Shown here one piece after another: positions 32,736 to 55,395 of a stretch of 64,000 nt of DNA; position 1 is the first letter of the stretch, and each line of letters begins with the position of its first letter. The notes below the pieces were generated by a model that saw only the letters and a list, made by a program, of their open reading frames with translations, was not told the DNA's origin and made no database searches. The position numbers and the translations under genes were made by a program. The stretch spans positions 57,970-121,969 of the forward strand of contig CALCLY010000025.1 of assembly GCA_937966555.1 (NCBI GenBank). The letters are read 5' to 3'. Origin of the DNA: an uncultured Clostridia bacterium. Lineage in GTDB: Bacteria; Bacillota; Clostridia; UMGS1883; UMGS1540.

Positions 32736-35700
32736 ATGAAAAAAATAGCTGCAATCATGACGTCGGTTTTCATGTGCTCGTCGTTTCTGCCCGTTTCGGC
32801 CGCACAAAGCGAGACGGTGACGATTCCCTACGTATATCACGAAACCTTCAACGATACCGCGGACGGTTTGGTGCCGTCAAGTATGGTGGCGAACGCCAAG
32901 ACAAATAAAATAGAGGTTAAAAGCGTTCCGTCCGAGAGTGACAAGAGTCTTAAATTCACATCCTCCACTCCGTCGGATTTTTACACAGACATAAGCCTCG
33001 GAGGCCTCGAAGACAATGTAGTAATAGATTTCAAGGTAAGATTTGACAAAAAATCGAATTCGGATTTCAGAATATACATGAAAAACTCGGCGGGAAAAGA
33101 GAGCGAGGTTTTGAGAATCAACAACAGTTTGCAGCTTTGCTCGCCTGACGGAACGGCGTATTCAAAGCTTACTACGGGTAAGTTTTATAAGCTGACAGTT
33201 AAAATCAATACCAAATCAGGACTTGCAAATTACTATGTGCGCGGCAAGGAGCGTGCGCGCGATATTTTGATAGGCGGCGGAACTTTTCAGAATATAAGCA
33301 TTCTCAGATTTCATTCTCTGGGCTTTGCGGGAGGCAACGTTTACCCCGAGTTTTATATTGACGAAATATCAGTTTACCAAAGCGAAAAACCAGATTTTGT
33401 GTTGAAAAACGAGGGTAAAGATGTTTCTTTGGGCGGCGGAACGGTAGGAAGCTCCGCAAGCGGAATTGCATCGGAAAGTGCGGTGGAGGATTATATGGGG
33501 AATGCAGCGGCTTTTTATATAGGTCAGCCGAGAATGTATGTGGACGGCGGCGTACAGTATGTAGACGCGGACAACACGTCGGCGGCGCCTTACATAAAGG
33601 AAGGGAGAACCATGGTGCCGCTTCGCGCGGCGGGAGAAGCTCTCGGGGCGGACCTTACGTACAGCGAAAAAGACCGGTCGGTGACGGTGGAATATGAAGA
33701 TAAAACCGCAGTGTTTACGGTTGATAAAAAAACATTTGAAAAGGACGGCGAAAAAATATCTCTTGACGCGGCGCCCGAAATCACGGCTTCGAGAGTATAT
33801 GTGCCTATCCGCGCAATCAGCGAGACTTTCGGCAAAAAGGTTACGTACGATAAATGCGGGCTGGTTGTTATTGCCGACCGCGAGGATTTCTTTAATTTCG
33901 TAACGGATCTCGATGTTTTCAGAAAGCTTACGGGCGACCTTTGCTTCCATGCGCCCACGGGTGCGGAGCTGGTAAGGAGGATAAAAGAAAACTTCCCGGA
34001 TAACGAGCATCCGCGTCTTTATGCAAACAGCGATAAAATTGCGGTTTTGCGTGAAAGAATTAAAAACGATGCGAATGTTGCAAAATGGTTTGAGAGTGTA
34101 AAGCAGCTTACGGAGGTATATTTCAAGACAGACCCGGTTGTATATGATATTTACGACGGAATAAGGCTTCTTTCAATATGCCGTACGGCAAGAGACAGAA
34201 TGCAGAATCTCGCCTTTTGCTATCAGATGACGGGCGAGACAAGATATGCCGACAGATGCATAGAAGAGATGAAGGCCGTTTGCAATTTTAAAGACTGGAA
34301 CCCGTATCATTTCCTTGATACCTCCGAGATGACAGAGGCTCTTTCCTTTGCATACGACTGGCTTTACGACTATTTGACGCCTGATATGCGCGAAACAGCG
34401 AAAACAGCAATTATTGAAAAGGGCTTAAATCAGATACTTGAAGACTACAGAGACGAGCCTTCGGGCAGAAGAAGAACCTGGAAATGGGCGCAGAGCCCTG
34501 TTGCGGACAACTGGAATTTAGTTTGCAACTCGGGTCTTTTGCAGGGCGCGATGGCTGTTGCGGAGGATGTCCCCGAAATTGCCGCGGAGGTGTTTGACGG
34601 CGGTTTGGAGCTTATCAAAAAAGCCGTTTTGCTTTACGGGCCGGACGGCGCATGGTATGAAGGACCCGGCTACTGGCTCTATGCTACAAGCTACTACACC
34701 GACCTTATGTGCTGTCTTGACTCGGTGTTCTCCGACACCTTCGGCTACTTAAACGTACCCGGTATTGCGCAGACAGGCTATTACATAACTTCGATTACGG
34801 GGCCGTGCGGAAACTTTAACTTTCACGATTCCGACATTGGAAGCGTAAACTCTCCCGAGATATTCTTCCTTGCGGATAAGCTTCATGACGCCGCTCTTTC
34901 AAATCTGCGAATGGAGCAGATGGCAGACAGGGGAACAAACGGAACCATAAGAGATATTTTGTATTATAATCCCGGACTTTCGGGAACAGCGGCAACAATG
35001 CAGAAGGATTACTATTTCCGCGATACGGAGGTTGCGTCTTTCAGAAGCGACTGGGATGACTCAAATTCAATATTCCTCGGCGTTCATGCCGGCAAAACAA
35101 ACGTATATCACGGTCATATGGACGCGGGAAGCTTTGTGCTTGACGGCTTCGGAACACGCTACGCCTCGGATCTGGGCGCGGACAACTACAATATCAGAGA
35201 CAGCGTGTGGAATCTTTACCGCTACAGAGCGGAGGGGCATAACACACTTGTTATAAATCCCTCAAAGGATGGCGGACAGAGGCTTGCCGGCGCGGCAAGG
35301 ATTGACAGATTCGAGTCGGGCATAAACAGCGGCTATGCGATAATGGATCTTACCGATATGTATAAGGACGCCGAAAGCGTCAGCCGCGGCTTTAAGCTTA
35401 CAAATAACCGCTCGGCGGTAATCGTACAGGACGAGATAAAGACAGCGGAGCCTGCCGATATATGGTGGTTCATGCACACAACAAACGACATTGAGGTGGC
35501 GGAGGACGGAAAGAGCGCGACTGTCAAGGGCAAATATAAAAATCTTAAGGTATCGCTTCTTGCCGACACACCGGGAACCTTCTCCGTTATGAGCGCTTCG
35601 CCTATGGAGACTTCGCCGCAGAACTCGGAGCAGAACAAAAACTTAATGTACAAAAAGCTTGCGTTCCATGCGGAAAATGTAACTGATATTACGATTCCCG

Positions 35701-36473
35701 TATTAATGCAGTTTGTAATACCGGTTGAAGGTTTTGAAGAAGAACTCAGCGTTCCGCTTGTTCCGCTCGCACAGTGGACGCTTGACGAAACCGGTGCTTC
35801 CGAAAAACCGATGCTTACAAGCATCACGGTGGACGGTGCAGAGCTTTCAGGCTTTAAACCCGACAGATATGTTTATACATACAGAATACCGGCGGAAAGC
35901 GACAGAATGCCTGAGGTTAAAGCGGAGGGCAGCGGAGAGGTAAGCGTTAAATACACCTCCTCGGTACCGGGATATGCGGTGATTACGGTAAACGACAGGG
36001 TTGACAGCAACGTTATAAACCAGTACATAATTAAAATAGATAAGGAAATCTTAAAACAGGCGCCCGAAGGCGTTTCACAGCTGAGTGTAAAGGAAGTTAA
36101 GGCAAGCTCTGTTCCGCAGCCTGAGAACAGCCCCGAAAACACGCTTGACGGCGATCTTTCAACGCGCTGGTCGGCTGAGGGCAATGCGAATATTGTGTTC
36201 GATCTCGGAGAGAGCAGGTCAGTAAAATATCTCGGTCTGGCGGTTTACCAGGATACGACAAACGACGGAAGACAGCAGTATTTTGATGTGCTTGTATCCG
36301 AAGACGGAGAAAATTATACTCAGGTCTACAGCGGCGAAAGCTCGGGAACAACGCTTGAGGAGGAAATATTCCCGATTCCCGAAACACGCGGAAGATATGT
36401 GAAGATTTATTGTAAGGGAACAAGCGTCGGAAACTGGAATTCGCTTACGGAGTGCACTTTGTACGGCAATTGA
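32736..36473 (+). CDS. Secreted multidomain polysaccharide lyase 1: signal peptide, LamG/DUF1080-like jellyroll, Cu-amine-oxidase-N-like domain, heparinase II/III-family domain, C-terminal F5/8 type C (discoidin) domain
   Basis: Signal peptide MKKIAAIMTSVFMCSSFLPVSAAQS. Heparinase II/III motifs (NWNLVCNSGLLQGAMAV; YHGHMDAGSFVLDGFGTRYASDLG). C-terminal NTLDGDLSTRWSAEG discoidin region. Start chosen at the ATG at 32736, with GGAG 6 nt upstream, in frame with the track start at 32667. Confidence 0.75.
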   Translation: MKKIAAIMTSVFMCSSFLPVSAAQSETVTIPYVYHETFNDTADGLVPSSMVANAKTNKIEVKSVPSESDKSLKFTSSTPSDFYTDISLGGLEDNVVIDFKVRFDKKSNSDFRIYMKNSAGKESEVLRINNSLQLCSPDGTAYSKLTTGKFYKLTVKINTKSGLANYYVRGKERARDILIGGGTFQNISILRFHSLGFAGGNVYPEFYIDEISVYQSEKPDFVLKNEGKDVSLGGGTVGSSASGIASESAVEDYMGNAAAFYIGQPRMYVDGGVQYVDADNTSAAPYIKEGRTMVPLRAAGEALGADLTYSEKDRSVTVEYEDKTAVFTVDKKTFEKDGEKISLDAAPEITASRVYVPIRAISETFGKKVTYDKCGLVVIADREDFFNFVTDLDVFRKLTGDLCFHAPTGAELVRRIKENFPDNEHPRLYANSDKIAVLRERIKNDANVAKWFESVKQLTEVYFKTDPVVYDIYDGIRLLSICRTARDRMQNLAFCYQMTGETRYADRCIEEMKAVCNFKDWNPYHFLDTSEMTEALSFAYDWLYDYLTPDMRETAKTAIIEKGLNQILEDYRDEPSGRRRTWKWAQSPVADNWNLVCNSGLLQGAMAVAEDVPEIAAEVFDGGLELIKKAVLLYGPDGAWYEGPGYWLYATSYYTDLMCCLDSVFSDTFGYLNVPGIAQTGYYITSITGPCGNFNFHDSDIGSVNSPEIFFLADKLHDAALSNLRMEQMADRGTNGTIRDILYYNPGLSGTAATMQKDYYFRDTEVASFRSDWDDSNSIFLGVHAGKTNVYHGHMDAGSFVLDGFGTRYASDLGADNYNIRDSVWNLYRYRAEGHNTLVINPSKDGGQRLAGAARIDRFESGINSGYAIMDLTDMYKDAESVSRGFKLTNNRSAVIVQDEIKTAEPADIWWFMHTTNDIEVAEDGKSATVKGKYKNLKVSLLADTPGTFSVMSASPMETSPQNSEQNKNLMYKKLAFHAENVTDITIPVLMQFVIPVEGFEEELSVPLVPLAQWTLDETGASEKPMLTSITVDGAELSGFKPDRYVYTYRIPAESDRMPEVKAEGSGEVSVKYTSSVPGYAVITVNDRVDSNVINQYIIKIDKEILKQAPEGVSQLSVKEVKASSVPQPENSPENTLDGDLSTRWSAEGNANIVFDLGESRSVKYLGLAVYQDTTNDGRQQYFDVLVSEDGENYTQVYSGESSGTTLEEEIFPIPETRGRYVKIYCKGTSVGNWNSLTECTLYGN

Positions 36474-36510
36474 CAGGCGGACAAAACATAGAATAACAGA
36501 ATATTTGTAG

Positions 36511-36689: not shown

Positions 36690-38540
36690 ATGAATTTTAA
36701 AAAAGCAATATCGGCGGCGCTGTCATCACTGCTGCTGCTTGCTTCGATTCCGTCTTATGCGGCGCCTGCCGCAAGCGAAAAAATCCCGTACGACACATTT
36801 GAAACGTACGGCAGCAAGCTCGGAGGCGGATGGAGAGTGCAGGGAGCGGATACCACGGCGCCGATTGTCGAAACCGAGAAGGGCAAAAGCGTGATGGGTG
36901 TGACAAGCCCGGGAGGAATGCTTGAGATTTTCAGAGATTTTGCGCAGACGGGAGAGAATGTAACGAGCGTTGCATGCGTGTTTTCGATTAAAATCGCGGA
37001 TCAAAATTCCCAAAGAAGTTTTTATACGAGAACTTCAAGCGGAGAATACGCTGTTTTGGCAATACAAAAGGGCGGGAAAATTAAAGTCGGAAAAACGGAA
37101 TATACGGAAATGTTGGTTGAAATTGACAAGTGGTATAACTTTTTTGTGGAATACAATGCAAAAAGCGGATACACAAGATGCCATATATCCGACGGCTCCG
37201 AAACAGTTACGGTATGCTCAAATCAAGATGCCGTAAATCTTACGGGACTGTACAGAATGAATTTTGCGCTTTTTAAACCCGATGAGGGCGAAAGCGTAAC
37301 ATACATCGATAATGCAGCTTTCTACGAGCTTCCGTATGATGTTGAAGCATATGCTGACGGAAAGGACACAAACGCACCTGAAACATTTGATGATTTTGAG
37401 CCTGCCGCTGACGGACTTACGGCGCCGCAGCCCGGCTGGAGGCTTCAGAACATCGAAGCCGGAAAGACTTCTCTTACGGCAGAATCCGCAGAGGGCAGAG
37501 GCAAATATCTGAAAATGCACAGTGAAGGGTTTAATCATTTTGAGCTTGTAAAAGATACGGGATTATTGGAGGGTGAGGCTGAAATTTCTTTTGATTTCAT
37601 GAAAACACCGCAGTCGTATTTTAAATTCGGCCTCCGCGGCACCAGGCCTGACGGAAGCCATATGAACGGAGCCTTTCCGATAGAGCTCACAAAGTCCGGA
37701 ATGCTGAATATAAGCGATGAAGCTCTGACAGCTCTTTCCGACAATGTATGGTACAAATTAAAAAATGAGTTTAACACAGAAAGCAATACAATGAAGATAA
37801 CGGTTTTGGAAGGAGATACAGAAGCGGCCTCCAAAACAATACCGATACCTCAAAATCTTATAAACATTACGGCGTATGAGTTTTATATGACGGTTACCGG
37901 AAATGCAAGCACGGTTTGCTTTGACAATTGCTTTGCGGGCAAAAATGTGTCGAAAGAAGCAGGCGTTTCCGGAATAAGCCCGGCGTTTGGAAATGTTTCT
38001 AAAAATATTGATAAGATTACAGTTTCGTTTGATGAAAAAATAACGGATGAAAACTTGGAAAATGCCGAGGCGCTTATAAACGGCAGCGCGGAGAATATTA
38101 AAGAAATCAAAGCGGAAGGGAAAACCGCGGTTATAACACTTTCGCATGAGCTTGCGGAGAATATGGGTTATCTTTTTGAGCTTACGGGCGTTAAAATAGG
38201 CGAAAAAGAGCTTTCGGCGATAATGTTTTATCAGACGCGCCCCGCCTTTGAGGTTATAAGCGTTGAGGGAGGAGAGCTTAAACCCGGCTTGTTTTCCTTC
38301 ACCGCGAAGATGGCTGCGACGGACGGAGGACCCGAAAAGGCTACGCTTATAACGATTATTTACGATAACAAAACCAATGCAATGGTCGGTGCGGATTTCT
38401 GCACGGCAGACCTCACCCCCGACGGGACGGAGTACAACACAAGCGTGGCACTTCCCGAGGGCAGCTACAGAGCTGTAAACTACATATGGGATAACGTTAA
38501 AAATATGCGTTCGCTTAACGCATTTTATGAAATAAAATAA
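36690..38540 (+). CDS. Secreted protein with two tandem LamG/DUF1080-like jellyroll repeats plus C-terminal beta-rich domains
   Basis: Signal peptide MNFKKAISAALSSLLLLASIPSYAAPAA. Repeat units begin (I/E)P..F/TFDDFE...GW..Q and end YIDNAAFYE / CFDNCFAG. RBS AAAGGAG. Confidence 0.6.
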   Translation: MNFKKAISAALSSLLLLASIPSYAAPAASEKIPYDTFETYGSKLGGGWRVQGADTTAPIVETEKGKSVMGVTSPGGMLEIFRDFAQTGENVTSVACVFSIKIADQNSQRSFYTRTSSGEYAVLAIQKGGKIKVGKTEYTEMLVEIDKWYNFFVEYNAKSGYTRCHISDGSETVTVCSNQDAVNLTGLYRMNFALFKPDEGESVTYIDNAAFYELPYDVEAYADGKDTNAPETFDDFEPAADGLTAPQPGWRLQNIEAGKTSLTAESAEGRGKYLKMHSEGFNHFELVKDTGLLEGEAEISFDFMKTPQSYFKFGLRGTRPDGSHMNGAFPIELTKSGMLNISDEALTALSDNVWYKLKNEFNTESNTMKITVLEGDTEAASKTIPIPQNLINITAYEFYMTVTGNASTVCFDNCFAGKNVSKEAGVSGISPAFGNVSKNIDKITVSFDEKITDENLENAEALINGSAENIKEIKAEGKTAVITLSHELAENMGYLFELTGVKIGEKELSAIMFYQTRPAFEVISVEGGELKPGLFSFTAKMAATDGGPEKATLITIIYDNKTNAMVGADFCTADLTPDGTEYNTSVALPEGSYRAVNYIWDNVKNMRSLNAFYEIK

Positions 38541-38556: not shown

Positions 38557-41007
38557 ATGTTCGGAAAAAAACTAACGGCGATTTTTTGTGCGGCGGCAAT
38601 GACCTTGTCTTTGTGCGCATTGACAGCAGGGGCATCGGCAGGAGATATTCTTATTCCGCAAACAGATTTTGAAGGATACGACTTAGGTCACGAATTCCCC
38701 AAGAAGCAGGGAGTAGCATCTCCCGAATGGTCATATCAGAACGCAGGCTCCGCGGTTATAGCGGAGACGGAAAGAGGCAAAAGCGTTAAGGTTGCGGGAG
38801 AGGCTCACTGTGAATTCAGATACGGAAACCTCGAATGGAATATCGAAGACACAATTACATCAAGCTTTGCCATAAAGAGAGAAACGTCGATAAAAGACAT
38901 TGCTCTTATTATGTATCACAACAGCGACGCAAACTCCAGACAGGTTTTAAAGCTCCGCAATGACGGAGGCATCACCCTCTGGAAATCGAGTTACCCTCTT
39001 TCGGATTTCAAGATGGAGCTTGGCAAATGGTATGATATAACGGTTAAATACAGTAAAACAGGTAAGGTTTACGCGCATATATCGGGTAACGGCGATGAAT
39101 TTGAATGCTATGCCGAGGACAGCAAGATGGCTCTTGAAAAGGTATTGGTTTTCGATATATACACACCCGGTGCGGACACATATTATTTTGATGATGCCTT
39201 TGTTAAGGAAGATGCACCTTTAAAACATGTATTTACGCAGAGAGAAATTTTAAACGTTGATTTTTCGCAGTATGACGAAGGCACAACATGGGAGTCTCTT
39301 TACGGAGCTCCCGGAGGCGCTGCAAACGGCGCGGCAGTCGTTGCAAGTGAAAACGGAAAAAAATATATGAAGCTTACAAGCACGGGCAGTTATTTCCAAC
39401 CTGAAGTTGCGGCTTCGGTTCCGATGAGCGAAAAAGCATTTGTTTTTGAAGCCGATATAAGATATGCGGCGGCGGGCAAATTCAATTTCCAGCCGAGGAA
39501 CACCGCGGGTGAATGTAACTTTATGTATGTAGATATTAACGGAAAGATAAATTTTGGCACAAATAATTCAAGCGCTACCATTAAGTGCGGCGAAAATTCT
39601 CCGTGGTATCATGTTACATACTATTATCTCTTTGATGAGCAGACTGGCGTTGTTTTCTTTGATGACGGAGACCGAATTGTTTCTGCAAGCGGGAAAGCTA
39701 CAACGCCTGATAATAAAGATATCACAAAATGGGGATTTGTTCTCTGGGGCGGCGAAATGGATATTGCCAATATGTCCGTAAAGACATTTGACCCCAATAA
39801 AATTTCAAAGCAGGGAATAACAATAAACGATTTCTCATTTGACAATGTTGGAGACAAAATTTTAGATCCTGTCGCTGACGGCGCCGAGCCTGCAAAAAAC
39901 GCGTATTACGGCTGGATGCAGACAAATACGAAAAACGGCGAGGTTATAAGAGCAACCGCAAAGGGTGAAACCGTAGACGGCAGGAAGGTTGTTGCGTTAA
40001 AGGATATAACGGGTACGTATTCGGAGTTTATAAACGATAATTTGGGGATAGCCAAGAATATGCTCGTTGAAACCGTGCTCCGCGTGACGGACGGCTCGCC
40101 TCTTCATGTTCAGCTTCGCGGACTCAATAAAGAAGGAGCTGCGGCTAATGTGGATTCGGGGTTTGTGTATTTCACCGGAGACAGCTTTAGGCTTTTGGAC
40201 AAAAAGGTATGCGCAATTAATCCTGCGGAATGGTACAGGCTTTCGGTATACCTTGACACAGATGCCGACACGCCTCACGCATATGTGGGCATTACGAATC
40301 TTTCAAGCGGAGAGACCTTTAAGGCTGACGCAGATATACCGCGCGCAATTGCAACAATTACGAGACTCGGCTTCTTTATTCCGAACAAACCGGGAGCAGT
40401 GGCTTATATAGACAGCTGCCGCGTAAGCCAAAAGGGGCAAAACACAATAACCGAGGCTCCGAAGGACGGCGTCGTTATAGCGGCGGACGGAAAGCTTGAT
40501 TTTGCGGTTGATCTCGCAAATATCGACCCCATTGCAAGTTCGATTAAATTAAACGGTGCGGAAGCGGACGCAAGCTTTGATACCTTGAAAGACAGAAGGG
40601 TTTCCGTGTCCGGAAGCTTTGAAGAAAACAAAAATTACACAATGGAATATACGTTTAAGGACTATGCCGGCGGAAGCGTTACGGGTACGCTTGACTTTAA
40701 AACGCTCGCAAGCTACGAGTTTGGAAGCATTGAGCTTTCAAAAACGGCAATTGAAGCGGGTGCGGTTTCAGCCACGGTAAACGGCAGAGTGCTTGATTCG
40801 AAGCATTACGCTACCTTTATTATTGCCGTGAAAAACGCAAACGGACGTATTCTCGACATAGAGCTTAAAACAATCAGATACAACGCCGATAACACGGATC
40901 ATACCGTTTCGGCGGAGGTCCCCGCGGAGGAAGGCAACTACAGCGTATCGGCAATGCTCTGGAAGAGCAATATGCAGCCGATACAGAAGGCGGCTGAAAT
41001 AAAATAA
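38557..41007 (+). CDS. Secreted paralog with three tandem LamG/DUF1080-like jellyroll repeats and a C-terminal beta-rich region
   Basis: Signal peptide MFGKKLTAIFCAAAMTLSLCALTAGASA. The repeats resemble those of the upstream gene (ETERGKSVKVAG vs ETEKGKSVMGV; YFDDAFVKE vs YIDNAAFYE). Confidence 0.6.
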   Translation: MFGKKLTAIFCAAAMTLSLCALTAGASAGDILIPQTDFEGYDLGHEFPKKQGVASPEWSYQNAGSAVIAETERGKSVKVAGEAHCEFRYGNLEWNIEDTITSSFAIKRETSIKDIALIMYHNSDANSRQVLKLRNDGGITLWKSSYPLSDFKMELGKWYDITVKYSKTGKVYAHISGNGDEFECYAEDSKMALEKVLVFDIYTPGADTYYFDDAFVKEDAPLKHVFTQREILNVDFSQYDEGTTWESLYGAPGGAANGAAVVASENGKKYMKLTSTGSYFQPEVAASVPMSEKAFVFEADIRYAAAGKFNFQPRNTAGECNFMYVDINGKINFGTNNSSATIKCGENSPWYHVTYYYLFDEQTGVVFFDDGDRIVSASGKATTPDNKDITKWGFVLWGGEMDIANMSVKTFDPNKISKQGITINDFSFDNVGDKILDPVADGAEPAKNAYYGWMQTNTKNGEVIRATAKGETVDGRKVVALKDITGTYSEFINDNLGIAKNMLVETVLRVTDGSPLHVQLRGLNKEGAAANVDSGFVYFTGDSFRLLDKKVCAINPAEWYRLSVYLDTDADTPHAYVGITNLSSGETFKADADIPRAIATITRLGFFIPNKPGAVAYIDSCRVSQKGQNTITEAPKDGVVIAADGKLDFAVDLANIDPIASSIKLNGAEADASFDTLKDRRVSVSGSFEENKNYTMEYTFKDYAGGSVTGTLDFKTLASYEFGSIELSKTAIEAGAVSATVNGRVLDSKHYATFIIAVKNANGRILDIELKTIRYNADNTDHTVSAEVPAEEGNYSVSAMLWKSNMQPIQKAAEIK

Positions 41008-46501: not shown

Positions 46502-49500
46502 ATGAGCAAAAAATTATTTTCTGTTTTGGTAATTATCTCTGTGCTGGCGGCACTTTTTACATCGTTTTGTGCGGCGGACGAACACGTTAATATTTTGCCG
46601 GCGAAAACAAAAAGCATAGCGGCAAATATATCAAAACGCAATCAGGGTTTGGAAATAGAAAATGTTATTGACGGAATTGACAGTACGCGGTTTGTATCAA
46701 AGGAATCGGAAACGGGAGAACTTACGGTAACCGTTAATCTAAAAAAAGAATTCAGTTTAACTGCCGTTGCGGTACGCGAGCGTTTCTTTACCGTAGGTTC
46801 TATGGCGAACGGCGTAAATGTTGAAGTAGGTACATCAGAAACAATGAAGGCGGTTGTTCAAAACGGTAAATTAAACAGCGGAACAACCGGAAGTGACGGA
46901 GAAATCGTCAGAACGGAATTTTCTTTTGCGGCGGCAAGCGGAAACATAATTAAATTTACTTTCACGCCCGGAGCATTAAAGGGAAACGGTGAATCTTTAT
47001 ACCAGCTTGCGGAGCTTGAGGCATTCGGAACGGAAATATCTTCGGGTGAAAGCGGAGAGGAAGAGACAAATTATATGACAGAGAGAATATACAATCCGTA
47101 CCTGCCGAGTTATGAATATATACCGGACGGGGAGCCGCATGTTTTCGGTGACCGCGTGTATATTTTCGGAAGTCACGACCATTACGAAGGAGCCGATTGG
47201 TGCGGCACGGATTATGTTGCATGGTCTGCACCGGCAAACGATTTATCGGCGTGGAGGTGTGACGGCGTAATCTGGGACTGTGACAGTGACCCGAGTTATT
47301 CTTCGGGTCAGGCGCTTTACGCACCCGATGTTACAAAGGGCGCAGACGGCAAGTATTATCTTTACTATCCTTTAAACGGCTCGGGAAGAATAGGCGTTGC
47401 GAAATGCGATACGCCGGCAGGAAAATATGAATATCTCGGAGCGGTGCAATACCCCGACGGCACGAATTACGGCAGAAAAGCCGGTGATCCTCCGGCATGC
47501 GACCCGGCGGCATATGTGGATGATGACGGGAGAGTATATTTTTACGCAGGTTATACAACGCACGACGAAACGGAATACAACGGACAAATAGCAAATGGCG
47601 TGGGAGCCGACGGAGCCTATTGCGTTGAGCTGGAATCAGATATGGTAACCGTTAATGAAAACACGCGCCGGAGAATTGTTCCCGGAAAGTATATTACGGG
47701 TGAGCAGGGCAATGAAGAATATGCCGGAAACGGATTTTTCGAAGCCGCGAGCATGAGAAAAATTAACGGGAAATACTATTTTATTTATTCCAAGGAAGAG
47801 GGACATCAGCTTGCCTATGCTGTCGGAAACAGCCCGAGCGGACCGTTTTCTTTCGGCGGCATTATAGTATGCAATACCGATGTAGGTTATGAGGGAAATG
47901 TTGAGAGAAAGGCAATTTACGGAAACAACCACGGAAGCATTGCCGAGATAAACGGCGAATATTACATATTCTATCATCGTCAGACCGGGAAAAAGTGCAG
48001 ACAAGGCTGCGCCGAAAAAATAAATATAAATTCCGACGGCTCGATAAATCAGGTTGAAATAACAAGCTTTGGCTTGGGCGGCGGCCGCCCCATGCTTGCA
48101 AAGGGCAAATTCCCCGCATATATTGCCTGCAATATTTCTCAGGGTGCAAGCTACGCGCAAACAGGGAAAGACGGAGACGTTTTTGCAAAGCAATATGTTT
48201 CGGCTTTAAAGACCGGAGAGTATGTGGGATATAAATATTTTTACTTTAAAGATACGAACAAAATTTCAGTAACCGCAAAAGCTCCTTCGGGCGGAAAAAT
48301 AAAGGTTTATACAGGGGCTATGATAGGAAGTCCTATAGCGGAAATTCCTTTGTCCGCAACAAGCGAATGGACAAAGTTTTCGCAGGATGTGAAGTTTGAT
48401 AACGGCACAGAGGCGCTTTTCTTTGTGTATGAGGGCAGCGGAACTCTTGATATTCTTGATTTTACTTTGGGAGAAGAGGGAGAAAGCCATGAAGTTTCAA
48501 TAAGCGGAAGCGAAGCTGCCGTCAGCGGAGCCGGAAGCTATCAGAGCGGCGAAACCGTTGCCGTATCTGCGGGAAGCCGCGAAGGATATGCATTTGACGG
48601 ATGGACGGTGAACGGAAACGCAAAGCTTGCGGATATCGGCAGTGCGGAAACGTCGTTTATAATGCCGGAAGAAAATGTTTCACTGACGGCTTTATGGAAA
48701 GCTGCTCCGCCGACTCCGAAAAACATTTTGCTTGCCTCGCAGAATCATGTAACAAAGGCAGAGGTAAACTTGCCTGCCGTAGTGCCGGTGCTCGGCGAAT
48801 ACAAAATGCGCAACGGAGAGATAGCCTCAAACGGAGATGACCGTTACGCGGCAAAAACGGGCGATGAGCCTTTGATTATCACATATACGCTTGATAAAAT
48901 ATATGATTTTTCAAAGATTTCCGTTTACGAGCGTTTCCAGGGCTATACGTTCGGTGAGGAGGTAAAAATAGAAGTCGGCAACGTTAAAAACGGTGCATAT
49001 GTCTTTGAGGAGGCTCTTTCGGGAGGAAGACTGAAGCAGGGCGCGGAACCCGGGAATGTTAATATAGCGCCATGCGTGCGTACAGATTTTAATATTTCGG
49101 CAAAGGGAAGCGCGCTGAGGCTTACTTTTACAAATAAATGGGAGGATAAAGACGGGAACCCGACAGGCGGAGTTCAGTCAAACGGCGGAAAAGAAGTCAG
49201 CACAGGCTACAGCTTTTTTGAGCTTGAAGCTTACGGAATCGAAATTGAAGGCGGAGATTTGCCCTACAACGTATGCCTCGGAAAGGCAGTATCGGTAAAT
49301 CTGCCTGCAGAGTATGCCGCTTTGCCTGCATCGGCAATTACGGACGGTTCCTATGAAGATAAATTGATGACGGAAACCGAGTATGACAGATATACAAGTC
49401 CTCCGTCTCCGAAAGAAGCGTTGGTTGTAACAATCGACTTGGACGGAGTGTATGACATCGGCTGGGCGGAGTTTAACAGCAGATTTGTTGTAAACGAAGG

Positions 49501-50056
49501 AGTGATCGCAGACCGCGTCAAGGTCGAGGTTGGCAGATCGGGCGCTTTCGGAACAACGTGGACCGTGGCAAACGATAACGTTATATTAAATAAGGGCGGC
49601 GACGGCGAGCATGTCTCCACACTTATTCCCTTTGAAAAAACGCTTACAGGCAACGAGATACGCTTTACATTGTTCAGAAACAGTTACAGCAGTCCGTGCA
49701 ATTATAACATTGCGGAGATTATGGCATACGGAAACAAAGCTGAAACCAAAACGGAGGACAGTATAGGCAGCGTGAGATTTATGAAATCAAAGTCGGGAGC
49801 CGTGACGGCAGCCGTAAAAGTCGTAAAGCAGGAAGAAAATTCCGTTTTGCCCGAAAAAACAATACTAATATTGTGTACATATAAAAATAACAGATTAGTC
49901 AGTGTGGATAAAAAGGAATATACACCGGCGGTTGGCGGAAATGAACTTACGGCAACGGTGGACAGTGTGGACGACGGCTGTGATATAAAGGCTTTTCTTT
50001 GGGAAAGCGCCACTTTAAAGCCGCTTATCGGCTGTGAAGCATATATTGCACAATAA
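46502..50056 (+). CDS. Secreted multidomain glycoside hydrolase: N-terminal discoidin-like domain, GH43-like five-bladed propeller, additional beta-sandwich/discoidin-like modules
   Basis: Signal peptide MSKKLFSVLVIISVLAALFTSFCAA. GH43-type motifs: NPYLPSYEYIPDGEPHVF (Asp base), LYAPDV (Asp) and GFFEAASM (Glu). 1184 aa. Confidence 0.55.
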   Translation: MSKKLFSVLVIISVLAALFTSFCAADEHVNILPAKTKSIAANISKRNQGLEIENVIDGIDSTRFVSKESETGELTVTVNLKKEFSLTAVAVRERFFTVGSMANGVNVEVGTSETMKAVVQNGKLNSGTTGSDGEIVRTEFSFAAASGNIIKFTFTPGALKGNGESLYQLAELEAFGTEISSGESGEEETNYMTERIYNPYLPSYEYIPDGEPHVFGDRVYIFGSHDHYEGADWCGTDYVAWSAPANDLSAWRCDGVIWDCDSDPSYSSGQALYAPDVTKGADGKYYLYYPLNGSGRIGVAKCDTPAGKYEYLGAVQYPDGTNYGRKAGDPPACDPAAYVDDDGRVYFYAGYTTHDETEYNGQIANGVGADGAYCVELESDMVTVNENTRRRIVPGKYITGEQGNEEYAGNGFFEAASMRKINGKYYFIYSKEEGHQLAYAVGNSPSGPFSFGGIIVCNTDVGYEGNVERKAIYGNNHGSIAEINGEYYIFYHRQTGKKCRQGCAEKININSDGSINQVEITSFGLGGGRPMLAKGKFPAYIACNISQGASYAQTGKDGDVFAKQYVSALKTGEYVGYKYFYFKDTNKISVTAKAPSGGKIKVYTGAMIGSPIAEIPLSATSEWTKFSQDVKFDNGTEALFFVYEGSGTLDILDFTLGEEGESHEVSISGSEAAVSGAGSYQSGETVAVSAGSREGYAFDGWTVNGNAKLADIGSAETSFIMPEENVSLTALWKAAPPTPKNILLASQNHVTKAEVNLPAVVPVLGEYKMRNGEIASNGDDRYAAKTGDEPLIITYTLDKIYDFSKISVYERFQGYTFGEEVKIEVGNVKNGAYVFEEALSGGRLKQGAEPGNVNIAPCVRTDFNISAKGSALRLTFTNKWEDKDGNPTGGVQSNGGKEVSTGYSFFELEAYGIEIEGGDLPYNVCLGKAVSVNLPAEYAALPASAITDGSYEDKLMTETEYDRYTSPPSPKEALVVTIDLDGVYDIGWAEFNSRFVVNEGVIADRVKVEVGRSGAFGTTWTVANDNVILNKGGDGEHVSTLIPFEKTLTGNEIRFTLFRNSYSSPCNYNIAEIMAYGNKAETKTEDSIGSVRFMKSKSGAVTAAVKVVKQEENSVLPEKTILILCTYKNNRLVSVDKKEYTPAVGGNELTATVDSVDDGCDIKAFLWESATLKPLIGCEAYIAQ

Positions 50057-50253: not shown

Positions 50254-50283
50254 TTGACTTTGTGTTGAGTTTTATTGTATAAT
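50254..50283 (+). promoter_or_regulatory. Sigma-A type promoter for lyase 2 (TTGACT - 18 - TATAAT)
   Basis: Hexamers read directly, ~25 nt upstream of the RBS GGAGG. Confidence 0.5.
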
Positions 50284-50307: not shown

Positions 50308-53300
50308 ATGAAAAAATTAACAGCAATACTTGTATCTCTTGTTATAAGTGCATCATTGTTACCCGCAAGGGCGGAAACAACCCCCGGGCACAAGCTCGAG
50401 ATGTTCATGGGAAACGCAGCCGCTTTTTACATCGGACAGCCGAAGATGTACACGGGCGGTGAAGTAAAATACGTTGACAGCGAAAACATAGCCGTATTGC
50501 CTTACATAAAGGACGGAAGAACGCTTGTTCCGCTTCGTGCGGCTGGCGAGTCAATCGGCGCAGAGATTTCGTACAACGAAATTGAAAGATCGGTAACCGC
50601 TGTTTACAACGGGGAAACGGCTGTTTTCCCGATAGGTCAAAATGAGTTTACGCTCGGCGGAAAAGAAATTCCCCTCGACGTTGCTCCCGAAATACGCGAA
50701 TCGAGAACCTTTGTTCCGATAAGAGCAATAAGCGAGGGCTTCGGGAAAAAGGTTTCCTACGATAAATGCGGTCTTGTGGTCATAGCCGACAGAGAAAATT
50801 TCTTTGATCTCGAAAAGGACCTCGATTTGTTCAGGGAGCTTACGGGCAAGCTTTGCTTTCATGCGCCCTCGGGCATCGAAGCGGTAAACAAAATAAAAGA
50901 AAACTTCCCCGATAACAAGCATCCGCGCCTTTATGCCGACGATGATAAAATCGAAGTTTTGCGCCGGAGGGTAAAAACCGACGCAAGCGTTTCAAAATGG
51001 TTTAAGGGTATAAGAGATTATGCGGATACTTATATAGGTACGGACCCCGTGGTTTATGATATTTACGACGGCATCAGGCTTTTAAATATTTCCCGTAAGG
51101 CAAGAAGCATAATGCAGGAGCTTGCATTTTGCTATCAGATGACGGGCGAAACAAAGTATGCCGACAGATGCATTAAGGAAATGAACGCCGTTTGCGAGTT
51201 TCCCGACTGGAATCCGTCTCACTTTCTCGATACGGCGGAAATGACGGAAGGACTTGCCTTTGCGTACGATTGGCTGTATAACTATATTACTCCCGATTTC
51301 CGCGAAAAGGTTAAAACGGCAATAATTGAAATGGGCTTAAAACAGGGAGTTCAGGATTACAGAAATAAGCCCGAGGACAGAAAAAGAACATACAGATGGG
51401 CGCAAAGCAGTGTTGCGGACAACTGGAACATTGTCTGCAATTCGGGACTTATTCAGGGTGCAATGGCAGTTTGCGAGGACGCGCCGGAGCTTGCGGCGGA
51501 GATTTTTGAAAGCGGAATGAAGCTTTTGGAGAAAGCTGTTTTGATGTACGGTCCCGACGGCGCATGGTATGAAGGCCCCGGCTATTGGCAGTATGCGACA
51601 GAGTATTTTATCGACCTTTGCAGCTGTCTGGATTCGGTTTTTTCCGATACGTTCGGATACTTGAGTGCGCCGGGTGTTTCGCAAACGGGCTACTACATAA
51701 CGGCAATAACAGGTCCTTGCGGAAACTTTAATTTCCATGATTCCGAAATACCTGCCGTAAACGCACCCGAGCTTTTCTTCCTTGCGGATAAGCTTTCCGA
51801 CAGCGCGCTTTCGGCGCTTCGCACGGAGCAGATGAAAAACAGAAACACAAAAGGCTCGATAAGAGACATTTTATATTATAATCCCGAGCTTTCCGGCGAC
51901 TCGGCTTTGATGAAAAAGGACTATTATTTCCGTGACACGGAGGTTGCTGCATTAAGAAGCGACTGGAACGATTACAATGCGGTATTCCTGGGCGTTCACG
52001 CAGGCAAAACAGACGTTTATCACGGACACATGGACGCGGGCAGTTTTGTTCTTGACGGCTTCGGCACGCGCTATGCCTGCGATTTGGGCGCGGATGACTA
52101 CAATATAGATGACAGCGTCTGGAATCTTTACAGATACAGAGCCGAGGGTCATAACACTCTCGTTATAAATCCTTCGAAGGACGGAGGACAGAAAATAGAA
52201 GGCTCAGCGAAGATTGACAGATTTGAGTATGACGACAACGACAGCTTGGCGGTTATGGATTTGACGGATATGTACGACGCTAAAAGCGTAAAGCGCGGCT
52301 TTAAGCTTATCGATAACCGCAGCGCCGTAATAATTCAGGACGAGATAAAGACGGATACGCCCTCGGATATCTGGTGGTTTATGCACTCGGAACAAGGCAT
52401 TGAAGTGTCGGAGGATAAAAAGAGCGCAACAATAAAGGGAGAATACAGAAATCTTAAAATTTCGCTCCTTCAAGACACGCCCGGAGAATTTTCGGTTATG
52501 GAGGCGGCCCCGATGGAGACATCGCCGCAAAATGATTCTCAGAACAAAAATTTAAAGTACAGAAAGCTTGCGTTTTGCGCGAAAAACGTAACGGATTTAA
52601 CTATTCCCATGCTCTTACGGTTTGAGCTGCCAATCGAAGGCGCGGAAGAGGGGATAAAGCCCGGTGTTACAAAGCTTGACAGCTGGACTCTTGATAACGC
52701 CGAGACGCCGAAAAAGCCGAAGCTTACAAGCATTCTGGCAGACGGCAGGGAAATCGAAGGTTTTGAGAGCGACAGATTTGTTTACGCATACAGAGGCCCT
52801 TCGGAAAATGAAAAAGCGCCCGAAATCACGGCACGCGGACAGGGTGAGATAAGCGTCGTGACAACCGGCAGCGTGCCGGGATACGCCGTGGTTTCGGTGA
52901 CCGAAAACGGAGAAACACAGCATTATGTTATAAAAATAGAACGCGAAATTTTAAAGAAGGCGCCGTCAGACGTTTTGAATTTTGAAATCAAGGGCGTTGA
53001 GGCAAGCGATGTTCCGCAGCCCGAAAACAACGCGGAAAATACCATTGACGAAAACCTTGCAACGCGTTGGTCTGCATACGGAAACGCGCATATAGTCTAT
53101 GATCTGGGCGAGGTTAAGACAATCAAATACGTAGGTCTTGCCGTTTATCAGGACAAATCAAATGACGGAAGAAGACAGTATTTTGATATATCGGTTTCGG
53201 AGGACGGAGAAAATTACAGGCATATCTTCACGGGCGAAACCACGGGAACAACGCTTGAAGAAGAAATTTTCCCGATAGGAGAGGCGAAGGGAAGATATGT

Positions 53301-53373
53301 AAAAATATATTGTAAGGGTTCAAGCATGGGAAACTGGAATTCCATCACCGAATGCAATATCTACGGGAAATAA
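50308..53373 (+). CDS. Secreted polysaccharide lyase 2: signal peptide, Cu-amine-oxidase-N-like domain, heparinase II/III-family domain, C-terminal discoidin domain
   Basis: Paralog of lyase 1 at ~75-80% nt identity in the catalytic region, sharing motifs such as YHGHMDAGSFVLDGFGTRYACDLG and NWNIVCNSGLIQGAMAV. Signal peptide MKKLTAILVSLVISASLLPARA. Start at the ATG at 50308. Confidence 0.75.
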   Translation: MKKLTAILVSLVISASLLPARAETTPGHKLEMFMGNAAAFYIGQPKMYTGGEVKYVDSENIAVLPYIKDGRTLVPLRAAGESIGAEISYNEIERSVTAVYNGETAVFPIGQNEFTLGGKEIPLDVAPEIRESRTFVPIRAISEGFGKKVSYDKCGLVVIADRENFFDLEKDLDLFRELTGKLCFHAPSGIEAVNKIKENFPDNKHPRLYADDDKIEVLRRRVKTDASVSKWFKGIRDYADTYIGTDPVVYDIYDGIRLLNISRKARSIMQELAFCYQMTGETKYADRCIKEMNAVCEFPDWNPSHFLDTAEMTEGLAFAYDWLYNYITPDFREKVKTAIIEMGLKQGVQDYRNKPEDRKRTYRWAQSSVADNWNIVCNSGLIQGAMAVCEDAPELAAEIFESGMKLLEKAVLMYGPDGAWYEGPGYWQYATEYFIDLCSCLDSVFSDTFGYLSAPGVSQTGYYITAITGPCGNFNFHDSEIPAVNAPELFFLADKLSDSALSALRTEQMKNRNTKGSIRDILYYNPELSGDSALMKKDYYFRDTEVAALRSDWNDYNAVFLGVHAGKTDVYHGHMDAGSFVLDGFGTRYACDLGADDYNIDDSVWNLYRYRAEGHNTLVINPSKDGGQKIEGSAKIDRFEYDDNDSLAVMDLTDMYDAKSVKRGFKLIDNRSAVIIQDEIKTDTPSDIWWFMHSEQGIEVSEDKKSATIKGEYRNLKISLLQDTPGEFSVMEAAPMETSPQNDSQNKNLKYRKLAFCAKNVTDLTIPMLLRFELPIEGAEEGIKPGVTKLDSWTLDNAETPKKPKLTSILADGREIEGFESDRFVYAYRGPSENEKAPEITARGQGEISVVTTGSVPGYAVVSVTENGETQHYVIKIEREILKKAPSDVLNFEIKGVEASDVPQPENNAENTIDENLATRWSAYGNAHIVYDLGEVKTIKYVGLAVYQDKSNDGRRQYFDISVSEDGENYRHIFTGETTGTTLEEEIFPIGEAKGRYVKIYCKGSSMGNWNSITECNIYGK

Positions 53374-53583: not shown

Positions 53584-55395
53584 ATGAAAAACACAAACAA
53601 AAAGGACAACCTGAAATATTTCAATGCGCCAAAGGGTTCCGAAATGGTAAAAATGATTTTGGAAAAACACCACGATAACGCTCATCCGCGCCTATATGCG
53701 GATAAAAACAAAATAAAAATTCTGCGTGAGCGGATCAAAAACGACACAAATGTCTCAAAATGGTTTGAGGATGTCAAGGAGCTTGCGGAAACATATTTTG
53801 ACATCGAGCCCGTAACATACGAAATCCCCGACGGCATAAGACTTCTTCGGAATTGCCGCAGAGCGAGAGACAGAATGCAGGAGCTTGCGTTTTGCTATCA
53901 AATGACGGGGGAGACAAGGTATGCCGAAAGATGCATAAAAGAAATGAAAGCCGTTTGCGCGTTTCCCGACTGGAATCCGTATCATTTTCTCGACACTGCC
54001 GAAATGACGGAGGGGCTTGCCTTTGCCTACGACTGGCTTTACAATTACATGTCGGAGGATTTTCGCGAAACTGTTAAATCTTCCATAATAAACAAGGGTC
54101 TGATGCAGATAGTCGAAGATTACAGAGATGAGCCGAAGGACAGGCGCAGAACATGGAAATGGGCGCAGAGCGAAGTGGCGGACAACTGGAATATTGTCTG
54201 CAATTCGGGCCTTACAGAGGGTGCGATGGCGGTTTGTGAGGACGCACCGGAGCTTGCCGCCGAGGTTTTTGACGGCGGCATGGAGCTTATTAAAAAAGCC
54301 GTTTTGTTATACGGCCCCGACGGCGCATGGTACGAAGGCCCCGCCTACTGGCAGTATGCGACAGAGTATTTTATCGGCTTTTGCTGCTGCCTTGATTCGG
54401 TTTTTTCCGACACCTTCGGTTATTTGAATGCGCCGGGAGTTTCGCAAACGGGCTACTACATCACCGCAATAACAGGTCCTTGCGGAAGCTTTAATTTCCA
54501 CGATTCGTCGATGGCGGTTATGAATGCGCCCGAGCTTTTCTTTCTTGCCGACAAGCTTTCCGACAGCGCGCTGTCCGCGCTCAGGACGGAGCAGATGACG
54601 GAAGGAAACGTTAAGGGTAAAATAAGAGATATTTTGTATTATAACCCCGAGCTTTCGGGAAAGTCGGCAAAGCTTAAAAAGGACTTTTATTTCCGCGACA
54701 CGGAGGTTGCCTCCTTCAGAAGCGGATGGGACAATGACGCGATATTTTTGGGTATTCACGCAGGCAAAACGGACGTTTATCACGGTCATATGGACGCGGG
54801 AAGCTTTGTTCTTGACGGCTTCGGCACGCGCTATGCCTGTGATTTGGGTGCGGATGATTACAATATAGAGGACAGAGTGTGGAATCTTTACAGATACAGA
54901 GCCGAGGGTCATAACACTCTCGTTATAAACCCTTCGAAGGACGGCGGACAAAGCCTTGAGGGAAATACGAAAATAGATGTTTTCAAGTCGGAGGAAAGCG
55001 CATTTGCGCAAATCAATTTAACCGATATGTACAATGCCGAAAGCGTAAAGCGCAGCTTTGAGCTTACAAACAACAGAAGTGAAATAATAATACGCGACAA
55101 AATAAAAACAAATGAAAAATCCGATGTTTGGTGGTTTATGCACACAACGTGCGAAATCAGTGTGTCGGAGGACAGGCGAAAAGCAATTTTAGCGGGGAAA
55201 AACAAGGATCTTGAGGTTTCGCTTATTTCGGACATTCCGGGAGAATTTTCGGTTATGAAGGCAATGCCCATGGAGACATCGCCGAAAAACTCCGAGCAGG
55301 ATAAAAACGAGGAATTCGTAAAGCTTGCTTTCCGTACGGAGAATGTAAAAGACGCGGAAATCTCAATATTAATGCGTTTTACGGAGAAACGGTGA
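53584..55395 (+). CDS. Polysaccharide lyase 3: heparinase II/III-family catalytic region only, with no signal peptide (predicted cytoplasmic)
   Basis: Tandem paralog of lyase 2, ~90% nt identity over long stretches. Start placed at the ATG at 53584 after GGAG; alternative starts are 53572 and 53548 (TTG). Lacks the Cu-amine-oxidase-N and discoidin modules. Confidence 0.7.
   Translation: MKNTNKKDNLKYFNAPKGSEMVKMILEKHHDNAHPRLYADKNKIKILRERIKNDTNVSKWFEDVKELAETYFDIEPVTYEIPDGIRLLRNCRRARDRMQELAFCYQMTGETRYAERCIKEMKAVCAFPDWNPYHFLDTAEMTEGLAFAYDWLYNYMSEDFRETVKSSIINKGLMQIVEDYRDEPKDRRRTWKWAQSEVADNWNIVCNSGLTEGAMAVCEDAPELAAEVFDGGMELIKKAVLLYGPDGAWYEGPAYWQYATEYFIGFCCCLDSVFSDTFGYLNAPGVSQTGYYITAITGPCGSFNFHDSSMAVMNAPELFFLADKLSDSALSALRTEQMTEGNVKGKIRDILYYNPELSGKSAKLKKDFYFRDTEVASFRSGWDNDAIFLGIHAGKTDVYHGHMDAGSFVLDGFGTRYACDLGADDYNIEDRVWNLYRYRAEGHNTLVINPSKDGGQSLEGNTKIDVFKSEESAFAQINLTDMYNAESVKRSFELTNNRSEIIIRDKIKTNEKSDVWWFMHTTCEISVSEDRRKAILAGKNKDLEVSLISDIPGEFSVMKAMPMETSPKNSEQDKNEEFVKLAFRTENVKDAEISILMRFTEKR

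Follow-up and report, generated by a model that had tools for sequence, protein, structure and literature searches.

Polysaccharide lyase family 35 (PL35) is represented by a set of glycosaminoglycan (GAG) lyases, GAGase I–VIII, BcPL35 and VvPL35, with 8KHV, 8KHW and 9O3Q as available structures. The substrates of its characterised members are hyaluronan (HA), chondroitin and heparan sulfate (HS), with alginate for one enzyme (PMC12088678, PMC11262172, PMC12269599), and in GAGase II Asn192 serves as the neutraliser and Tyr246 and His401 as acid/base (PMC12088678, eLife). At the level of gene clusters, the closest described systems are the polysaccharide-utilisation loci (PULs) of Bacteroidota, e.g., B. 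caccae PUL25 with its PL35, GH88, GH109 and GH154 genes, and the Gram-positive PULs of Firmicutes. Here we analyse positions 32736–55395 of a 64-kb stretch of DNA (the whole stretch is hereafter called the window) from an uncultured Clostridia bacterium, contig CALCLY010000025.1. The region carries nine genes, A–I, and a preliminary description made from the sequence alone had read it as a PUL-like locus. In our analysis it is probably a chromosomal glycan-utilisation locus of an anaerobic gut Clostridia species, working by the mechanism proposed below, and it most likely degrades a uronic-acid-containing polysaccharide by means of three predicted PL35 lyases, A, H and I.

All nine open reading frames (ORFs) were found on the + strand, at the coordinates listed in Table 1. 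The set comprises the paralogous lyases A, H and I, the repeat proteins B and C, the SLH proteins D and E, an oxidoreductase (F) and a multidomain GH43 protein (G). Gene starts were adopted from callers on other contigs of the same species, which place the ATG of A at 32736 and give the shorter forms of B, H and I. Read at the N-termini, a signal peptide of the basic–hydrophobic–AxA type is present on A, B, C, D, E, G and H and absent from F and I. The preliminary description had given the same nine-gene layout, the same two proteins without signal peptides, and the SLH, Gfo/Idh/MocA and GH43 assignments. All of these hold, and the hidden Markov model (HMM) matches to the heparinase II/III, SLH and GH43 families in Pfam are significant throughout.

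In lyase A, Pfam recovers Cu_amine_oxidN1 (5e-29), DUF4962 (7.6e-10), Hepar_II_III_C (5.6e-13) and F5_F8_type_C (1.2e-18). H has the same domain set minus the N-terminal module that makes up the first ~230 residues of A, and I matches DUF4962 and Hepar_II_III_C only; these two families score above their gathering cut-offs in all three proteins. A and H are 68% identical over 995 amino acids (aa), either of them is 71% identical to I over ~590 aa, and all three carry both the motif YHGHMDAGSFVLDGFG and the motif NWN.VCNSGL, in keeping with the earlier claim of three paralogous heparinase II/III-family lyases. Of the family assignments that the preliminary description had put up for checking (PL12, PL15, PL17 or PL21 versus another family), the outcome is another one, PL35. 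Compared with all PDB sequences, lyase I retrieved the PL35 structures 8KHV (1.4e-72), 8KHW (1e-59) and 9O3Q, a PL35 chondroitinase (3e-56). The next matches were 8R73, annotated as heparinase II/III-like (7e-12), the PL15 structure 3A0O (3.8e-10) and heparinase III, 4MMH (7.6e-3), which leaves the best non-PL35 families (~1e-10 to 1e-12) about 60 orders of magnitude weaker. Membership of A, H and I in PL35 is well supported by these comparisons. Two other candidates were rejected: heparinase II/III proper (PL12, PL21), with NCBIfam scores of 34.9 bits for HepB and 17.1 for HepC against cut-offs of 600 and 700 in addition to the poor 4MMH match, and PL15/PL17, given the distance between the 3A0O and 8KHV matches.

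Aligned to 8KHV (GAGase II), the three lyases are 33–34% identical and keep, in GAGase II numbering, N192, Y246, H401, H403, R88, R94, H136, E242, D299 and Y427. The catalytic Asn, Tyr and His are invariant among 22 homologues, and H403 is the second (Mn-site) His, retained as in PL35 enzymes. From this alignment, A, H and I are predicted to be uronate lyases with intact beta-elimination machinery. The residues around the substrate are another matter: relative to GAGase II, R87 is replaced by Ile, N191 by Asp, Y240 by Trp, R342 by Ile and E428 by Asn, and a 13-residue deletion takes out the GAGase loop with W438, M440 and R446. None of the GAGase substrate-binding residues R87, N191, R342, W438, M440 and R446 is retained, which bears on specificity and not on family membership. 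The cleft is predicted to be less cationic and differently shaped than in the GAG enzymes, so the substrates of characterised PL35 members are not simply transferable; the preliminary description had already held that the substrate could not be read from the sequence, and we agree. Because the cleft is altered and the window has no sulfatase genes, the substrate is probably weakly charged or unsulfated.

The C-terminal discoidin domain of A is closest to the CBM32 of the alginate lyase AlyQ (8e-22) and to the polygalacturonate-binding YeCBM32 (1.1e-11), as compared with 1.4e-4 for the Gal/GalNAc-binding type CBM32 of C. perfringens GH84. A and H are predicted to be exported enzymes, each with a CBM32 of uronate-binding type, and I is presumed to be a cytoplasmic oligosaccharide lyase. 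The preliminary description had not recognised the combination of Cu_amine_oxidN1, lyase and discoidin domains as a described one. We found no experimental paper on it in the literature, but the A-type architecture is not rare: clustering at 90% identity leaves 50 or more clusters that have it, most of which are unnamed or labelled ‘MAG: Clostridia bacterium’ (MAG, metagenome-assembled genome), with few exceptions.

The window proteins were mapped by tblastn onto 84 loci (given below by their L numbers), and called genes were read for a subset. Many MAGs of uncultured gut Clostridia share one gene order, AraC, A, B-like, C-like, D, E and in some cases F, at 30–55% protein identity, and an AraC-type gene lies at the equivalent position in L005, L007–L011, L014, L020, L086 and L101. 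Of the 19 loci with a full-length A and flanks of 8 kb or more on each side, 14 had a detectable E. In the GTDB species genomes, full-length relatives turned up in MAGs whose record titles name goat caecum, buffalo colon, Hadza gut and chicken as sources; MAG RGIG1656 has at least seven such loci, and relatives were also found in soil Paenibacillus. Within the species, the locus is 96–100% conserved across eight contigs, whose sample labels suggest that the species lives in the human gut. The accessory genes vary, with GH43 (G) in the window, GH20 and GH89 (NAGLU) directly upstream of the lyase in L085, an ATP-binding cassette (ABC) importer and a CE4 fusion in L087, and extra PL35 copies in many related loci. 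Conservation of the gene set as a cassette beside an AraC-type regulator in many genomes bears out the description of the region as PUL-like.

A separate observation concerns a sister lineage (L001–L003), in which L001:1-16812 corresponds to window positions 23024-41007. Protein identity there is 97–100% for the flanking operon, 95% for AraC, 85% for A, 87% for B and 53–64% for C. Such a gradient suggests recombinational replacement, rapid divergence or diversifying selection of the surface-exposed cassette proteins.

D and E each carry three tandem SLH repeats, a wall-polymer-binding trimer, and are predicted to be anchored to the wall polymer through them. Pfam found no family for the N-terminal region of D or for the ~680-aa part of E. 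Most of the related loci have D and E as a pair. Searching 1.84 billion representatives with a profile of E yielded 7,664 clusters at E<=1e-30, part of them possibly SLH-only matches. The best 150 matches (E<=1e-126) are almost all full-length proteins of roughly 850–1,100 aa, the exceptions being a few truncated forms, a few ~1,440-aa fusions and one protein of 2,594 aa; some family members carry an N-terminal F5/8C, Golvesin_C or GDSL domain. Four ~1,440-aa representatives have the size and match coordinates expected for a D–E fusion, and P0200, the one of the four that was aligned, shows a full-length match to D (1e-35) followed by one to E (4e-38). Because the genes are adjacent in the window, overlap by 4–8 nucleotides (nt) between the D stop and the E start in several other loci, and are fused in P0200, D and E appear to behave as one unit.

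The gene contexts of the E family were sampled in a handful of loci. D/E-like pairs lie between two PL8 lyases together with a two-component regulator (L096) and beside solute-binding proteins (SBPs) and permease or ABC importer genes (L087, L097, L098). The L100 pair is accompanied by GH130, a Cu_amine_oxidN1 protein and two SBPs, and the L101 pair by an AraC gene, a GDSL esterase, a GH141-like beta-helix enzyme and a protein that combines Cu_amine_oxidN1 with a beta-helix. Since the pairs adjoin PL8, importer, GH130, GH141-like and GDSL genes, D/E would accompany glycan cassettes linked to a regulator quite generally in these bacteria, beyond PL35. Our literature search returned no counterpart for the D/E pair or for the lectin-like proteins B and C.

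A bolder proposal, which we put forward as speculative and on balance doubtful, is that D/E form a widespread, previously undescribed two-protein SLH-anchored apparatus that marks Gram-positive glycan cassettes, much as SusC/SusD marks Bacteroidota PULs. The Ig-like/helical head of D and the string of OB-like barrels of E would project from adjacent SLH trimers. Their task would be to trap the substrate, or to keep the cassette's secreted enzymes and lectin-like proteins in place, and to hand oligosaccharides across the wall to an importer; the Cu_amine_oxidN1 domain and a ~100-aa C-terminal domain shared by B, C and G would be the docking modules. If this were true, the pair would be a practical marker for PULs in Gram-positive gut bacteria and would offer a testable model of polymer handling at a thick wall with an S-layer. 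As an S-layer lattice, our rejected alternative for the pair, D/E would be expected neither in multiple copies nor linked to cassettes, and they are both. The Cu_amine_oxidN1 domain itself recurs on secreted proteins of other D/E cassettes, in a 718-aa protein (L100:17438-19594) and in a 1320-aa beta-helix/Big_2 enzyme (L101:11711-15617). As a universal D/E docking module it is unsupported, since neither the PL8 enzymes of L096 nor B, C and G possess it.

B and C are 22% identical over 589 aa (5e-11), and the first module of C is weakly related to the N-terminal module of A (6e-4). Pfam assigns Big_5 to B and nothing to C, and no PDB sequence match to C was found. The preliminary description had called the repeats of B and C LamG/DUF1080-like. 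Neither Laminin_G_x nor DUF1080 was matched by Pfam in the two proteins even at E<=10, and among 24 homologues Big_5 occurred in 9, Laminin_G_3 and Sialidase-like_CBM in 2 each, and DUF1080 in none, which excludes HMM membership in the DUF1080/LamG families. What survives is the similarity of fold, which the Laminin_G_3 and Sialidase-like_CBM matches among the homologues also support. An AlphaFold model of C shows three tandem jelly rolls and two small sandwiches, for which Foldseek finds legume lectins (probability 1.00, template-modelling score ~0.45–0.5 on the target), laminin LG, the Hc region of botulinum neurotoxin (BoNT) and the Bacteroides surface glycan-binding protein Bt SGBP-B. A ConA-like jelly-roll fold of B and C is therefore likely from this moderate-quality model, and B is probably a non-catalytic glycan-binding protein.

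The shared C-terminal beta-sandwich of ~100 residues spans aa 536-636 of B, 719-816 of C and 1084-1176 of G and has a conserved aromatic-Trp motif. With an HMM of the B/C-type domain, matches were also obtained at the C-terminus of G (3.4e-8), in the Big_5 protein of L096 and in further multidomain secreted proteins of related loci. The domain lies outside all Pfam families and may serve in docking or retention.

F is the best conserved protein of the cassette (55–64% identity across loci). Its best PDB matches are IolG 3MZ0 (4.9e-32), DgpA-type glycoside 3-oxidases and glucuronide 3-dehydrogenase, and no GH109 structure is among the 60 PDB matches listed. F stays below all NCBIfam equivalog cut-offs and can be assigned only as a generic Gfo/Idh/MocA protein. 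In G, Pfam finds Glyco_hydro_43 (5.6e-26; 92 bits against a cut-off of 32.2), F5/8C, CBM_6 and Flg_new_2. The GH43 and CBM6-like module matches the termite-gut arabinofuranosidase/xylosidase TerARA (9NO3) at 4e-102 over 462 residues with ~50% identity. The G motifs PDGEPHVF, APDVT and FEAAS align with 9NO3 and retain Asp/Asp/Glu; we take them to be the GH43 motifs of the catalytic Asp base, the Asp modulator and the Glu acid. In other strains of the same species, G is largely deleted (L094:11195-12348) or split into two ORFs (L095:11205-14758) and the remaining cassette genes are 96–100% identical, so that G appears dispensable.

The gaps between B, C, D, E and F measure 5–33 nt. Given these gaps, the terminator after F and the promoter-like sites, the core transcription unit is predicted to be A–F (32736-46354), divergent from the AraC gene, under AraC control and ended by a strong terminator. 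G, H and I would be accessory units and look like add-ons with promoters and terminators of their own. The 216-nt gap between A and B (36474-36689) contains a GC-rich hairpin at 36554-36573 with no T-run on the + strand, which may be an intra-operon processing or attenuation site.

Table 1. Coordinates in the window of the locus genes, their putative regulatory sites and the neighbouring gene clusters
Feature	Position	Strand	Description
RpiR-family regulator	20559-21395	-	Divergent from the catabolic operon
Catabolic operon	21592..31483	+	Under the RpiR-family regulator; link to the lyase system positional, membership uncertain
Bidirectional terminator	31517-31560		20-bp, strong; between catabolic operon and AraC gene
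AraC-family regulator	31568..32503	-	Cupin/AraC_binding sensor domain and HTH_AraC (Pfam); divergent from gene A
AraC–A intergenic region	32504..32735		Divergent; promoter-like sites on both strands (sequence scan)
A, predicted lyase	32736..36473	+	1245 aa, secreted; signal peptide, ConA-like N-module, Cu_amine_oxidN1, PL35 module, Ig-like region, CBM32-type discoidin domain
A, Cu_amine_oxidN1	~33573-33854	+
A, PL35 module	~33945-35717	+
A, CBM32	~36096-36449, within 36063-36470	+
B	36690..38540	+	616 aa, secreted; two ConA-like modules, Big_5 Ig-like domain, ~100-aa C-terminal beta-sandwich
C	38557..41007	+	816 aa, secreted; three tandem jelly-roll (ConA/LamG-like) modules, Ig-like domain, B-type C-terminal domain
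D	41037..42635	+	532 aa; signal peptide, Ig-like and helical region, Ser/Gly linker, three C-terminal SLH repeats (Pfam 4e-37)
E	42641..45265	+	874 aa; signal peptide, N-terminal SLH trimer (Pfam SLH 5.9e-8), ~680 aa of small OB-like beta-barrels
F	45299..46354	+	351 aa, cytoplasmic Gfo/Idh/MocA NAD(P) oxidoreductase (Pfam 9e-36)
Terminator-like hairpin	46410..46448	+	16-bp stem and T run, strong; closes the A–F unit
G	46502..50056	+	1184 aa, secreted; F5/8C, GH43 and CBM6-like module, Flg_new_2, further beta-sandwich domains, B/C-type C-terminal domain
Promoter-like site	50254..50283	+	11/12 matches; ends 24 nt upstream of the H start codon
H, predicted lyase	50308..53373	+	1021 aa, secreted; Cu_amine_oxidN1, PL35 module, Ig-like region, CBM32-type discoidin domain
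I, predicted lyase	53584..55395	+	603 aa, PL35 module alone, no signal peptide (Pfam, PDB search, N-terminus)
HydABC-type cluster	55598-59732		Three genes (NuoE-like, NuoF-like, [FeFe] hydrogenase); directly downstream of the locus, preceded by a 12/12 sigma-70-like promoter match

The catabolic operon upstream encodes a GlcD-like FAD dehydrogenase, an Fe-S protein, a class II ketose-bisphosphate aldolase, a PfkB kinase, an IolB-type isomerase, a XylB-like kinase, a single-polypeptide EtfB-EtfA fusion, NagA and a weak NagB/AgaI-like protein. NagA passes its own NCBIfam cut-off, and the PfkB kinase is closest to ribokinase. The isomerase had been called KduI-like; it passes the IolB equivalog TIGR04378 with 236.9 against a cut-off of 205, and no KduI model reached the 1e-10 threshold. 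The canonical KduI/KduD/KdgK/KdgA (Eda) route is not encoded, there being no KduD of the short-chain dehydrogenase/reductase (SDR) type, no Eda and no GH88 or GH105 in the window. From its gene content, the operon could combine a hexosamine (amino-sugar/tagatose) branch, a deoxy-keto-uronate branch and an Etf-coupled 2-hydroxyacid dehydrogenase. The preliminary description had made this operon part of the system. It is indeed adjacent, but it has a regulator of its own and a strong bidirectional terminator behind it, and because it travels with the cassette only in this lineage, we regard the link as positional.

Downstream, the hydrogenase cluster marks a strict/fermentative anaerobe and is unrelated to the locus. 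The first 20 kb of the window hold a dcw cell-division cluster. Between the housekeeping genes that follow it and the catabolic operon lie two cyclic di-GMP (c-di-GMP) proteins (16253-20258), a GGDEF protein and a 1037-aa dCache-GGDEF-EAL protein.

In the mechanism that we consider probable, A and H would cut an extracellular polysaccharide with 4-substituted uronic acid, probably unsulfated or weakly charged, guided by their uronate-type CBM32. B and C would bind the polymer, the D/E unit would hold the substrate or the secreted proteins at the wall, and G would trim pentose (arabinofuranose or xylose) decorations. Oligosaccharides would then be imported by a transporter encoded elsewhere and cleaved in the cytoplasm by I, and F might oxidise or reduce the resulting 4-deoxy-keto-uronate or glycoside. 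The substrate may be either a glycosaminoglycan-like polymer or a dietary or microbial acidic polysaccharide.

The locus might be specific for a host GAG-type polymer (unsulfated chondroitin, HA or heparosan/HS), with the neighbouring operon consuming the N-acetylhexosamine and uronate, a version we rate as possible and rather unlikely. Every characterised PL35 acts on HA, chondroitin or HS (PMC11262172, PMC12269599), the missing sulfatase suits an unsulfated substrate, and in the operon NagA, the NagB/AgaI-like protein, the class II aldolase and PfkB would suit a N-acetylgalactosamine (GalNAc)/tagatose branch; GH20 and GH89 upstream of the lyase in the paralogous cassette L085 and the PL8 lyases of L096 point the same way. 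Yet the lyases share only a third of their residues with GAGase II, have Asp at 191 and have lost R87, R342 and the W438/M440/R446 loop. The CBM32 of A is nearest to alginate- and pectate-binding modules and not to the Gal/GalNAc-binding type, the accessory enzyme is a GH43 pentosidase in a window without GH88 or hexosaminidase, and the operon does not accompany the cassette in other lineages and is set apart by a regulator and a terminator of its own. In view of this CBM32 and the GH43, the uronate plus N-acetylhexosamine polymer named by the preliminary description is a possible substrate at most.

The same CBM32 similarity, the GH43 module close to the termite-gut enzyme and the less cationic active site would instead suit a dietary or microbial acidic polysaccharide, either pentose-decorated or with a polyuronate backbone (alginate-like, pectic, arabinogalactan-protein/gum-type or bacterial exopolysaccharide), which we advance no more than tentatively. 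GAGase III, a PL35 enzyme, also cleaves alginate (PMC12088678), relatives come from herbivore caecum and colon MAGs and from soil Paenibacillus, and in other D/E cassettes there are genes for a GH141-like beta-helix enzyme and a GDSL esterase, as is usual in loci for plant glycans. However, no PL35 is known to act on plant gums or pectin, and His188, needed for the alginate activity of GAGase III (PMC12088678), is Asp in these lyases; the GH43 gene, lost in some strains and absent from other cassettes, may not report the main substrate.

It seems very unlikely to us that the cassette has no nutritional role and serves to modify the envelope or matrix of the cell itself, e.g., a capsule, a biofilm exopolysaccharide or a secondary cell-wall polymer that contains uronate. 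Such a role would account for the wall anchoring of D and E, for the fast divergence of surface proteins between close lineages, seen in C against the flanking genes, and for the position of the related L004 amid envelope genes (a WecG-type glycosyltransferase, a DegT aminotransferase and other SLH proteins). Against it, the sugar-binding cupin of the AraC regulator and the cytoplasmic lyase and oxidoreductase indicate import and catabolism, related cassettes include ABC importers and SBPs, and the many paralogous cassettes per genome, with differing accessory carbohydrate-active enzymes (CAZymes), resemble PUL repertoires and not a housekeeping system for remodelling. It is scarcely credible that the genes are mere neighbours that form no functional system: G, H and I do seem to have their own promoters and terminators, with no common operator, but the recurrence of the A-B-C-D-E(-F) order in many MAGs at such low protein identity contradicts this, and the short B–F gaps and the existence of a D–E fusion speak against it as well.

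Several results weigh against a single, complete glycan-utilisation system as we propose it. A comparison of 14-mers with up to 2 mismatches among the intergenic stretches that precede A, B, G, H and I gave no shared AraC operator, the matches being AT-rich and due to chance, and co-regulation of the accessory genes is accordingly conjectural. Pfam scans of the ORFs of the locus, both flanks and most of the remaining window found no carbohydrate importer, whether ABC, major facilitator superfamily (MFS) or phosphotransferase system (PTS), and no GH88/GH105, KduD, Eda or sulfatase; they returned the dcw cluster, the GGDEF/EAL proteins, the catabolic operon and the HydABC-type hydrogenase. Uptake and the downstream steps are for this reason assumed in our mechanism. 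None of the enzymes carries a signal of the SLH, sortase or dockerin kind, so that of the ‘surface-anchored system’ of the preliminary description the anchoring of D and E stands and that of the enzymes is conjectural; cellulosome-type display was ruled out, as A–I gave no dockerin or cohesin match in Pfam. For C and E, model quality is moderate, with predicted local distance difference test (pLDDT) values of 66 and 69 from alignments of 7 and 11 sequences; the word-based homologue searches behind them gave 6 sequences for C and 13 for E, which limits model confidence. Lastly, almost no polar residue is conserved across the B/C family, which fits fast-evolving binding proteins and is also compatible with a catalytic role.

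Overall, the predicted lyases compare with the known PL35 GAG lyases in the (alpha/alpha)6 toroid of DUF4962 and the Hepar_II_III_C beta-sandwich, and in the neutraliser Asn, the Tyr/His acid/base and the Mn-site His. They differ in that A and H are multimodular, with Cu_amine_oxidN1, an Ig-like region, CBM32 and a ConA-like module, as opposed to the known single proteins of ~625 aa, and in that their host is Gram-positive, the characterised enzymes considered here coming mainly from Bacteroidota, with Victivallis vadensis in addition (PMC12269599). The predicted lyases differ from these further in the low identity, the deleted loop, the two Arg-to-Ile changes and the Asp at position 191. What is new would be multimodular Gram-positive members of a known PL35 family with a divergent cleft. 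A family so far characterised as single-domain and mainly from Bacteroidota is met here as multimodular, multi-copy proteins in uncultured gut Clostridia, and the altered binding cleft means that the lyase specificity may be new.

With the Bacteroidota PULs, the locus shares a regulator-linked cassette, a predicted outward endo-lyase, putative non-catalytic surface glycan-binding proteins, a conserved marker pair of surface proteins, variable accessory CAZymes and many paralogous cassettes per genome. It differs from them in having no SusC/SusD, outer membrane, lipoproteins, GH88, sulfatase or transporter, and in a marker pair that is SLH-anchored; neither a SusC-like TonB-dependent transporter nor a SusD-like lipoprotein was matched by Pfam on the locus genes or flanks. 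In its working, the locus would thus be PUL-like, yet without SusC/SusD and, in the window copy, without a transporter. It resembles the Gram-positive PULs of Firmicutes in the transcription factor (AraC) beside secreted multimodular CAZymes and cytoplasmic finishing enzymes, and the related cassettes L087, L098 and L100 have permeases or SBPs. The difference from these is that no transporter was found within 64 kb for the window copy, and that we found no mention of the D/E pair or of the B/C proteins in such literature as could be searched; a search on SLH-type Gram-positive PULs or Clostridial PL35 likewise gave nothing relevant. Unlike the surface proteins SpaA of Paenibacillus alvei and Sap of Bacillus anthracis, D and E are multi-copy and cassette-specific, not a single lattice protein, and their non-SLH parts (Ig-like plus helical in D, OB-like barrels in E) have no Pfam family or close structural match. 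Finally, G shares with TerARA the GH43 and CBM6-like module with its catalytic motifs retained, and differs from it by ~700 extra residues (F5/8C-like, Flg_new_2 and beta-sandwich domains), by its place in a lyase locus and by being dispensable in some strains.

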